Source: a virus
Reading direction: 5' to 3' (one strand)
DNA: 64,000 nucleotides
Virus record (IMG/VR): IMGVR_UViG_3300009008_000026
Span: 13,907 to 77,906 of that record
Shown: in pieces, positions 38,856 through 40,568 of the stretch
Layout: every line of letters starts with the position of its first letter
Numbering within the stretch: position 1 is the stretch's first letter
Notes under the pieces: generated by a model
Databases searched by the model: none
Seen by the model: only the letters and a program-made list of their open reading frames with translations
What the model was told of the DNA's origin: nothing
Translations under genes and position numbers: made by a program

Positions 38856-39050
38856 ATGAGCAATAATATACCAAATACTTTGGACAATCTGATCACGCTG
38901 TTGGAAAACACCCGCGATGATTACACTAAATTCTATGATAGCGGAAACGCTAGCGCAGGAACTCGTGTTCGCAAGGTGATGCAAGAGGTTAAGGCCCTCG
39001 CACAAGAAACTCGCTTGCATGTGCAAGAGACTAAAAATAACAATACTTAA
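38856..39050 (+). CDS. histone H1-like (Hc1 family) protein
   Basis: KFYDSGNASAGTRVRKVMQEVK..AQE.R..VQ signature. Confidence 0.75.
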   Translation: MSNNIPNTLDNLITLLENTRDDYTKFYDSGNASAGTRVRKVMQEVKALAQETRLHVQETKNNNT

Positions 39051-39055
39051 TGACA

Positions 39056-39090
39056 GAATCCGCAGGGAGGCATGGGTTCACAGATGCCTC
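39056..39090 (+). other. H-type RNA pseudoknot
   Basis: GAAUCC/GGGUUC and GAGGCAU/AUGCCUC interleaved stems. Confidence 0.55.
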
Positions 39091-39122
39091 ACACATTTTT
39101 AAATAATTAAAAGGAAAAAGAA

Positions 39123-39383
39123 ATGGAAAAACTTAAATCACTTTGGTCGCGTTGGAAGGTACAGATTAGCTTTGTGGCAGGAGCCTTGGTCGTATCAACG
39201 ACGATGGGAACTTGTTCTTTCGAGCCAGCAGTATCCCCAGCAACGACTGGAACAACAACCACAGAAACCACCACTGGCACAACCACTGGCACGACTGACG
39301 GGGCGATTGTGGGTGCGGTTGACGCGATTAATGACATCGCCACCGGCACAACCGACAACACTACGGACAATAACGGTCAGTAG
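39123..39383 (+). CDS. Thr-rich membrane-anchored or lipoprotein-like protein
   Basis: Hydrophobic N-terminus followed by Cys; TTTG repeats. Confidence 0.65.
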   Translation: MEKLKSLWSRWKVQISFVAGALVVSTTMGTCSFEPAVSPATTGTTTTETTTGTTTGTTDGAIVGAVDAINDIATGTTDNTTDNNGQ

Positions 39384-39397
39384 AGAAGCGAAAGAAA

Positions 39398-39604
39398 AAA
39401 TGTAGAGTGGCTGAGTGTTGCAAGGTAGGAGTCGGGTTCAATGCCTATACTGAACTCTGAGCGGTTGAAGAATGATCTTTAACGCGAAACCTTTAACCCT
39501 TCAAGGTCAAGTGTATAGCACAAAACACACGGGAATTGAAATTAGGCTAGCGAGATGCAGACGCGGCGAAAACAGCGAGCACGACACTTGGCCACTTTAC
39601 ATTT
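39398..39604 (+). ncRNA. structured rod-like ncRNA (6S-RNA-like candidate)
   Basis: 23-bp closing helix 39398-39420/39582-39604 with 4 G-U pairs; nested inner helices. Confidence 0.6.
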
Positions 39605-39606
39605 GC

Positions 39607-39650
39607 TTTACAATTAACTTCTTGACATGTCATGCGCGGTGTGCTAAATT
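39607..39650 (+). promoter_or_regulatory. sigma70-type promoter, degenerate relative of the 56-bp repeat
   Basis: TTTACA 15 bp upstream of TTGACA, then 17 bp and TG-extended TAAATT. Confidence 0.5.
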
Positions 39651-39673
39651 GTAAAGAGATAAGAGAGAAAAAC

Positions 39674-39847
39674 ATGACATACACAGTAATCTTCGCAGAC
39701 CGCAAAAATAATCTAAAAACCGAAGTCTTCTTCGGAGCAGCATGCCACAAGAGGGCATACACAGAGGCCAAGCAAGAGTTTGGGACAGTGGTTGCCCTTA
39801 TCACGGGCAATCAGTTGGTCTACACCAGCGCGCCCAGTCGCGCGTAA
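39674..39847 (+). CDS. hypothetical protein
   Basis: ATG after GAGAG, downstream of the promoter. Confidence 0.55.
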   Translation: MTYTVIFADRKNNLKTEVFFGAACHKRAYTEAKQEFGTVVALITGNQLVYTSAPSRA

Positions 39848-39856
39848 TTAATAACG

Positions 39857-39931
39857 TGCCCTTAGCTCAGTTGGTAGAGCAATCGACTGTTAATCGATGG
39901 GTCGCAAGTTCAAGTCTTGCAGGGGCAGCCA
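39857..39931 (+). tRNA. tRNA-Asn (GTT)
   Basis: Cloverleaf: D-arm GCTC/GAGC, anticodon arm ATCGA-CTGTTAA-TCGAT, T-arm GCAAG-TTCAAGT-CTTGC, encoded CCA. Confidence 0.9.
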
Positions 39932-40087
39932 TTTTTGTAGGATATGCCGCCCTACAGATACAAACAGAATCATTCAGATTCAAAATAATTAATCATCATT
40001 GTCATTAGGCGCACAATGATTAGCGTTATAACAAGGAGTTTAAGATGCTACATAAAATGAGATGTACACGATTTTTTTCATTAAAAT

Positions 40088-40408
40088 ATGGTTAAAAAAA
40101 GTAAAACATGCAGAAATGCAAAACATGAATTTAAGAGTGAGTACGATAGCAGAGAAGAAGCACAACGATCAGCAGATTACGTCATGAAGAAGTTCGGTGG
40201 ATTCGCTGAACCAGTGAAATGCTGGAATTGCAGAAAATGGCACTTAGGAATTGATTCCTGCGAGTGTTCCTATTGCACACCCAGATACGGACTCGGAACA
40301 AAGACACTATTTACTTCGTATGCCGCGGCCAAGTTCATGGCTAGTAAATTTGACCAGTCAGTTTATGAATGCCCGCATGATTTTGGTTATCACTTAACAT
40401 CACATTAA
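40088..40408 (+). CDS. Cys/His-rich zinc-binding protein with duplicated motif
   Basis: Two K..Y/F...A...C.xC..W/YHL units. Confidence 0.65.
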   Translation: MVKKSKTCRNAKHEFKSEYDSREEAQRSADYVMKKFGGFAEPVKCWNCRKWHLGIDSCECSYCTPRYGLGTKTLFTSYAAAKFMASKFDQSVYECPHDFGYHLTSH

Positions 40409-40492
40409 CATATAGGGCATACCACTTGCATGGAGACAAGCACAGGACATAAATAGCAGTAGCTAGACGCTGAACACTAACCCCCTCAAACT

Positions 40493-40568
40493 GCGCCCGT
40501 AGCTCAGGGGTTAGAGCGTTGTTCTTATAAAGCAGATGTCATGGGTTCAAATCCCATCGGGCGCACCA
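40493..40568 (+). tRNA. tRNA-Ile (TAT)
   Basis: GCGCCCG/CGGGCGC acceptor stem, anticodon loop CTTATAA, T-arm ATGGG-TTCAAAT-CCCAT, ACCA end. Confidence 0.9.

Follow-up and report, generated by a model that had tools for sequence, protein, structure and literature searches.

A stretch of 207 bases in the DNA analysed here, a window of 64,000 nucleotides from an IMG/VR virus record, encodes a folded non-coding RNA, conserved among uncultured large marine phages and outside all catalogued families. Its carriers are an uncultured marine phage lineage with genomes of ~170-205 kb. An initial annotation of the same DNA had proposed a phage-encoded structured RNA, which is borne out here. These phages retain the RNA in most of the near-complete genomes examined, sometimes twice, and it is better conserved than its neighbouring protein genes, yet without a match in Rfam 15. 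With a minimal form of ~130 nt, it is a compact addition to the growing set of orphan phage RNAs found in or near tRNA islands. The design of its gene is also unusual, in that the helix formed by the two ends appears to serve also in termination or processing, and shares sequence with the upstream box of the following promoter. We favour the view that this is the gene of a small, stable and pseudoknotted RNA of an uncatalogued family, probably a trans-acting free-standing particle, a composite reading to which we give about even chances.

Structure of the RNA and its support across the family

The ends of the window element form the gapless closing stem of 23 bp that had been annotated initially, in which AAAUGUAGAGUGGCUGAGUGUUG (39398-39420) pairs with CGACACUUGGCCACUUUACAUUU (39582-39604) through 19 Watson-Crick and four G-U pairs on the + strand. 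On this strand the 207 nt fold with -65.2 kcal/mol (z = -3.87), a value reached by 0/200 shuffles, and the fold of the - strand is weaker (z = -2.87). The parts of the element, some of them compared with the closest relative, L157, are the following.

39398..39420, + strand: 5' arm of P1, the terminal clamp helix of 23 bp; a family-wide helix whose sequence differs per member
39391-39394 with 39606-39609, + strand: AAAG and CUUU, which may pair as a possible extension of P1
39421..39433, + strand: J1/2, an unpaired linker, A/U- or purine-rich, CAAGGUAGGAGUC
39434-39440 with 39451-39457, + strand: P2 hairpin, GGGUUCA with UGAACUC; covariation
39441-39450, + strand: P2 loop of 10 nt, AUGCCUAUAC
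39443..39447, + strand: 5' strand of the pseudoknot, GCCUA, within the P2 loop; covariation (alignment columns 41-46 with 182-187)
39458..39530, + strand: P3, a variable insert of ~73 nt in the window; compensatory changes relative to L157
39461-39485, + strand: local hairpin inside P3, GCG-G-UUGAAGA-AUGA-UCUUUAA-CGC; compensatory changes relative to L157
39531..39542, + strand: purine-rich conserved strand, GGGAAUUGAAAU, with family consensus g-n-a-g-U-n-R-a-a-a; conservation
39543..39547, + strand: 3' strand of the pseudoknot, UAGGC; covariation
39548..39555, + strand: conserved linker, UAGCGAGA, with family consensus c-U-R-g-C-g-A; conservation
39556..39581, + strand: P4 hairpin, UGC / AGA / CGC-G-G-[CGAAAA]-C-A-GCG / A / GCA; covariation
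39582..39604, + strand: 3' arm of P1, whose outer part holds TTTACA (39596-39601) of the next promoter module

Measured from P1 to P1, members of the family are 128-222 nt long. Covariation backs the P1 clamp, the P2 hairpin, a pseudoknot of 5-6 bp between the P2 loop and a downstream strand, and the P4 hairpin. In an alignment of 52 sequences, termed A5, the named structure is 95.9% paired, versus 83.8% in shuffles, with pair counts for P2 and P4 that lean toward the structure because A5 was aligned to a model already containing these two helices; the pseudoknot was left out of that model. When the partners are slid by 1-3 columns, no more than 41.5% of A5 is paired. The covariation score for P2, the pseudoknot and P4 in this alignment is 0.349, compared with 0.128 in shuffles, none of which scored as high (0/500).

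The individual helices combine variable and invariant pairs. First, in P2 (GGGUUCA/UGAACYC) the three basal pairs covary (GC, GU, CG, UA, AU), the upper UUC/GAA pairs (U-A, U-A, C-G) are invariant in 52/52 sequences and the top A-U is present in 38/52. Second, the pseudoknot pair at columns 45/183 occurs as CG (15), AU (14), GC (13) and UA (3), and that at columns 44/184 as UA (26), AU (12) and GC (5); the partner strand is found ~90-140 nt downstream of the P2 loop across the family. Third, the three outer pairs of P4 covary (GC, AU, UA, CG, GU), and its top is nearly invariant, namely, CGC-G-G-YNARRA-C-R-GCG, with the CGC/GCG pairs and an inner G-C pair. Altogether, ~35 near-invariant positions are kept across very divergent phages, and the P3 insert ranges from CCC-UUCG-GGG in the smallest members up to ~100 nt.

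The arms of P1 were not alignable with MAFFT, and this helix was therefore analysed sequence by sequence, free of any alignment. It has 8-29 bp in 34 distinct stems, with a sequence that is different in nearly every member, and cognate arms pair with a mean of -27.6 kcal/mol, as opposed to -14.3 kcal/mol for non-cognate arms. With G-U and A-C scored alike, the mismatches of P1 amount to 27 G-U versus 5 A-C, in agreement with the earlier proposal that the G-U wobbles of the window stem reflect selection at the RNA level on the + strand. The window and L157 differ in P1 by three transitions, and pairing is preserved in all of them.

Beside P1, the single-stranded linker spans 13-25 nt at the 5' side and, in most members, 0-5 nt at the 3' side; it shows no sequence conservation. 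Since P4 joins the 3' arm of P1 without a linker in most members, the window element included (junction J3 = 0 nt), P4 and P1 probably stack. P2, the pseudoknot and P3 would then make up a compact side domain, with the A-rich strand in the groove of P2; from the geometry of H-type pseudoknots, the purine-rich strand at 39531-39542 would lie in the minor groove of this helix.

Two other readings of these parts were rejected. The pairing required to read GGGUUCAAUG as a T-arm is broken in L102 and L036, whereas P2 and the pseudoknot covary. As for a small peptide, the frames that start at the AUG of the P2 loop run for 10, 13, and 21 or more codons; as judged by eye, they share no stop and have no third-position pattern.

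Distribution and comparison with known RNA families

Among the matches listed, ~15 phage contigs from IMG/VR and 53 contigs from marine metagenomes were verified as carriers of the family with a covariance model. The first model, R1, was built from five sequences including the window element, which scores 126.3 bits as one of these five seeds; non-seed members score 20-163 bits. All the family-defining features are present at 39398-39604, that is, P1, P2 with UUC/GAA, a pseudoknot 5' of cURgCgA, and P4 with CGC-GG-YNARRA-C-R-GCG. The contigs were reached by several routes: a scan for conserved motifs found 13 viral contigs; a pattern scan of metagenomes gave at least 120 marine contigs, from which 80 loci were kept, with the 53 R1 matches being among these; and a neighbouring nucleotidyltransferase gene led to 80 related loci, among which nhmmer found two homologs of the element.

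A second model, R2, has a match in eight of ten genomes of related phages with a completeness of at least 90% (~170-205 kb), three of the eight being weak, and no match in the two others. Two diverged copies are present in G040 (C1:23024-23149 and 181544-181706), in G052 (C1:168583-168739 and 194921-195054) and on contig L213 (83-240 and 4255-4387). Other searches were less productive. Comparison with 50,697 phage records by blastn and megablast returned no relative of the element, the only matches being to tRNA-Asn; a scan for the closing-stem motif gave no match; and a 16-base P4 pattern matched 36 contigs, only four of them real. The same holds for 185,579 genomes of prokaryote species, where 91 pattern matches, mostly in high-GC genomes, include a single copy confirmed by the model (85.6 bits). 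This copy is on L263 (CAZKIP010000019.1; 5261 bp), from the bin of an uncultured Methanosarcinales MAG, and L263 is probably a phage contig that was misbinned with this MAG.

An Infernal search against Rfam (6S, tmRNA, SRP) and an analysis of covariation among homologs had been put forward initially as checks of the annotation. In the former nothing matches the element, and the latter revealed covariation in P2, the pseudoknot and P4. The absence of a match to any Rfam 15 family in a conserved and covarying RNA supports a new RNA class, which had been offered as the alternative to 6S RNA. Specifically, cmscan of the whole window with Rfam 15 at gathering scores gave only two tRNAs, as did ARAGORN, which found no tmRNA in the window; at E <= 10 there was nothing on the element within 39000-40000, and at E <= 1 nothing on the homologous element of nine other members. 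The Rfam models for tmRNA, SRP RNA, RNase P RNA and YrlA do not match the element. Leaving aside the 2023 IMG/VR catalogue of 8495 candidate RNAs (PMC10690425), a description of this family was not found in the literature.

Several known RNAs nevertheless resemble the new family in general terms. The rnaC and rnaD of T4 are stable phage RNAs of 119-139 nt and unknown function, which adjoin phage tRNA genes on the same strand. Unlike the new family, rnaC has a tRNA-like T-arm at its end, and both RNAs were rejected as relatives, given that R1 with filters off reached a best score of 6.5 bits over the T4 tRNA region. YrlA (RF02553) shares with our RNA two ends that form a long stem, together with a compact structured domain, and YrlA-type RNAs reportedly occur in phages as well, an observation said to be that of Chen et al. 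in 2014. In contrast with YrlA, the new family lacks a tRNA-like module of T-arm and D-arm, and its P1 is devoid of a conserved protein-binding bulge; the sole YrlA hit is weak (22.6 bits, for a cut-off of 69) and lies on two neighbouring tRNA genes in L108, off the element. GOLLD, ROOL and manA are likewise conserved and intricate phage RNAs with pseudoknots, often in or near tRNA arrays and with no obvious regulated gene, whose function is unknown or only structural. GOLLD and ROOL are far larger than the new RNA, and the consensus of this orphan set differs from it; manA (RF01745) was discarded as a relative, its model having found nothing at E <= 10 anywhere in the 77.9-kb record. A preprint reports RNA-only assemblies for GOLLD and ROOL (bioRxiv 10.1101/2024.12.08.627333).

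Genomic context of the RNA gene

The window is part of a 77.9-kb IMG/VR record that is estimated to be 40% complete and in which the element occurs once. The larger ORFs of the record are nearly all on the + strand, and it encodes DnaB, a class II ribonucleotide reductase, a DnaE-type polymerase, a GMP-reductase-like enzyme and a GroEL-type chaperonin. The polymerase, which is the sole protein compared, is at most 31% identical to any from a cultured phage. On one side the element is flanked by a small Thr-rich ORF (39123-39383), and on the other by a sigma-70-type promoter, TTGACA-N17-TAAATT (39622-39650). The features in the vicinity of the RNA are given below.

39596..39650, + strand: downstream sigma-70-type promoter module, outside the RNA core; consensus match
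39596-39601, 39607-39612, 39622-39627 and 39645-39650, + strand: boxes of this module, TTTACA, TTTACA, TTGACA and a TG-extended -10 box TAAATT, respectively
39857..39931, + strand: tRNA-Asn(GUU), 250 nt downstream of the element
40493-40568, + strand: tRNA-Ile(UAU), 890 nt downstream of the element
L169:6049-6060; L006, ~25-45 nt upstream of 14149; L189 and L175, upstream of the RNA: sites of a TGACGT(G/A)AC-like word in relatives

In ~40% of the members there are tRNA genes on the same strand within 3 kb, usually downstream and sometimes only 42-63 nt away, and none on the opposite strand. That all neighbouring tRNA genes share the strand of the RNA would favour our strand assignment. Many related phages again have tRNA-Ile(UAU) beside the RNA, along with tRNAs for Leu(UAA), Arg(UCU), Lys(UUU) and Asn(GUU), and all of them read A/U-ending codons. 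As for proteins, no neighbour is common to the whole family, neighbours differ between clades, and no protein co-occurs consistently with the RNA among the family loci.

Promoter and terminator calls, which are consensus matches only, place a promoter-like sigma-70 site within 110 nt downstream in 26 of 47 distinct flanks, versus 34 of 235 control windows, and a box of the TTGACA/TTTACA type inside the 3' arm of P1 or no more than 12 nt past it in 20 of 36 distinct P1 stems. U-runs follow P1 directly in several clades. Upstream, the arrangement depends on the clade. In that of L169, TATAAT is found 5 nt before P1 and U7 directly after it, so that the RNA looks like a stand-alone gene, although with a -35 region that is not canonical; in L020, a full promoter module is located ~25 nt upstream of the RNA. 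In the window and in the L102/L119 clades, the RNA is directly behind the stop of an ORF. The window, L157 and L119/L204, which have no promoter-like site directly upstream and follow an ORF, also have the longest P1 (21-29 bp), in comparison with 8-12 bp in the self-promoted clades.

Other observations relate to the surroundings. The TGACGT(G/A)AC-like word is found ~25-30 nt upstream of P1 in three clades that seem to be self-promoted, where it might act as a -35 element of non-canonical type or as the site of a regulator. For the small ORF after the promoter of the window (39674-39847; MTYTVIFADRKNNLK...), homologs occupy the corresponding position in at least nine related loci. In one clade (L102, L118, L119 and L120), a conserved protein of 124 aa ending in ...IHIER(S/T)ATY, present in 14 loci, has its stop ~20 nt before P1. 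A 39.8-kb contig from DNA run X5, belonging to a close relative, has 12 extra nucleotides (ACCACTGGCACA) at 39269 in the Thr-rich ORF; it also lacks 39882-40411 of the window, where 35 other letters stand instead, so the stretch between the tRNAs, including ORF 40088-40408, is variable. The best-matching sequencing runs are DNA metagenomes, and the contigs of two RNA-library runs that could be aligned to the window cover only its tRNA parts.

Possible modes of action

We consider that the product is probably a free-standing stable RNA that acts in trans. It would be made early, by one of two routes. In the first, the RNA would have its own promoter and terminator, with P1 plus the U-run acting in termination. 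In the second, which would apply to the window, it would arise by read-through from the preceding small gene and be released by cleavage in the long P1, RNase III being a likely agent. P1 would then shield both RNA ends against exonucleases, and the invariant core and the top of P4 could serve as the binding surface for a partner, which implies action in trans, and not as a switch of the neighbouring gene. A free-standing gene is suggested by the promoter and U7 of the L169 clade, the promoter of L020, the genomes with double copies, the neighbours that are not universal, and the occurrence in 8/10 genomes. Release from longer transcripts, in turn, may be read from the longest P1 being found where there is no upstream promoter-like site, and from P1 transitions that keep the pairing. 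This RNA should lend itself well to structure determination, pull-downs and activity screens, since it is small and has a clear pseudoknot and a long clamp helix.

Some departures from this scheme, under which the RNA would be the founder of a new functional class and not a further orphan, deserve mention, although we regard it as unlikely that any of them applies: the pairing of 5-6 bp between loop and strand may be intermolecular, leading to RNA-only oligomers like those of GOLLD and ROOL, as covariation cannot separate pairing within one molecule from pairing between molecules; the core may be a new ribozyme or aptamer; or it may be a decoy for a host protein. In the latter case, the target could be a protein of host translation, tRNA processing or defence.

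The main rival of the free-standing RNA is a purely cis-acting 3'-end module, which would end, insulate or stabilise the upstream transcript, either as a long-range terminator, as a site for RNase III cleavage or as a barrier to exonucleases just ahead of the following promoter or tRNA, and whose released RNA would have no function of its own. We judge this to be rather unlikely, even if the context accommodates it well: the RNA always comes last in its transcription unit and usually abuts the next promoter or tRNA, with a sigma-70-like promoter within 110 nt in 26/47 flanks and a promoter box in or within 12 nt of the 3' arm in 20/36 stems, U-runs come after P1 in several clades, and P1 attains 21-29 bp where the RNA follows an ORF. 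For such a task, however, a plain hairpin would suffice, yet the phages have kept a covarying pseudoknot, an invariant top of P4 and ~35 positions that hardly vary. Moreover, the L169 clade has its own -10 box, and therefore no upstream message to protect; in members where a tRNA lies at +42 to +63 and the interval showed no promoter-like site, the RNA must be read through; and second copies exist elsewhere in the same genome.

That the pseudoknot core itself is catalytic or binds a small molecule, as in a unit that cleaves itself in order to process tRNA or early transcripts, or in a metabolite sensor, seems to us distinctly improbable. The invariant unpaired nucleotides are indeed dense around the pseudoknot, as is typical of ribozymes and riboswitches, and the putative ribozyme or aptamer would sit in polycistronic tRNA or early transcripts. 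Nonetheless, no Rfam model of a known ribozyme or riboswitch matches, and the 8-29 perfect pairs of P1 are far too stable for a switch helix operated by a ligand. There is no expression platform either, the next gene usually having its own promoter, and no conserved candidate cleavage site could be defined.

The likeness to 6S RNA that had been annotated initially did not withstand comparison, and we now see it as very improbable. According to this reading, the RNA would bind the sigma-70 holoenzyme of the host by mimicking an open promoter, and would thereby titrate it. 6S RNA (RF00013 and related models) is also a non-coding RNA of ~200 nt with its ends paired in a long closing stem, probably abundant and stable, so that the size (207 nt here), the paired ends and the probable early expression of our RNA are compatible with it, and a TTGACA-like word is double-stranded inside P1 in many members. 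But no Rfam 6S model matches the window or nine other members. In contrast to 6S RNA, which has a large two-sided central bubble in a rod, the fold of the new RNA consists of a clamp, an H-type pseudoknot and a short hairpin, P4, of only ~10 bp; the unpaired region beside P1 is one-sided and not conserved, and there are no conserved promoter-like single strands. Promoter mimicry by the 5' arm of P1 plus J1/2 was rejected for want of consistent -35/-10 words, and the TTGACA-like word in P1 is explained at the DNA level, because the first box of the next promoter overlaps the stem.

The three inner word pairs from which a rod had been drawn are all present at 39437/39535, 39445/39513 and 39465/39499, but the rod with its central bubble is not what they form. 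First, UUCAAU (39437) lies in the 5' strand and loop of the covarying P2. Second, CUAUAC (39445) belongs to the P2 loop that forms the pseudoknot; the loop of L157 reads CUAAAA, which breaks the CUAUAC/GUAUAG pairing, and the GUAUAG partner lies within a clade-specific insert, kept in L157 and absent in shorter members. Third, UUGAAG pairs locally (UUGAAGA/UCUUUAA), and L157 has AUGAGGA/UCCUCAU at this place, i.e. two double compensatory changes. Since L157 has lost the inner helices of the rod or has a covarying local hairpin in their place, the 6S reading finds no support.

Finally, a DNA-level element, either a miniature transposon or a protein-binding palindrome with terminal inverted repeats that mimic an RNA stem, can hardly be entertained despite its apparent repeats of 8-29 bp around a unit of 130-220 bp and the two copies in some genomes, as near-identical dispersed copies were not found, with a single occurrence in the record of the window, the mismatches of the arms follow one strand (27 G-U against 5 A-C), the interior contains covarying RNA helices and a pseudoknot, and the arms vary between genomes around a conserved interior, which is the reverse of a transposon.
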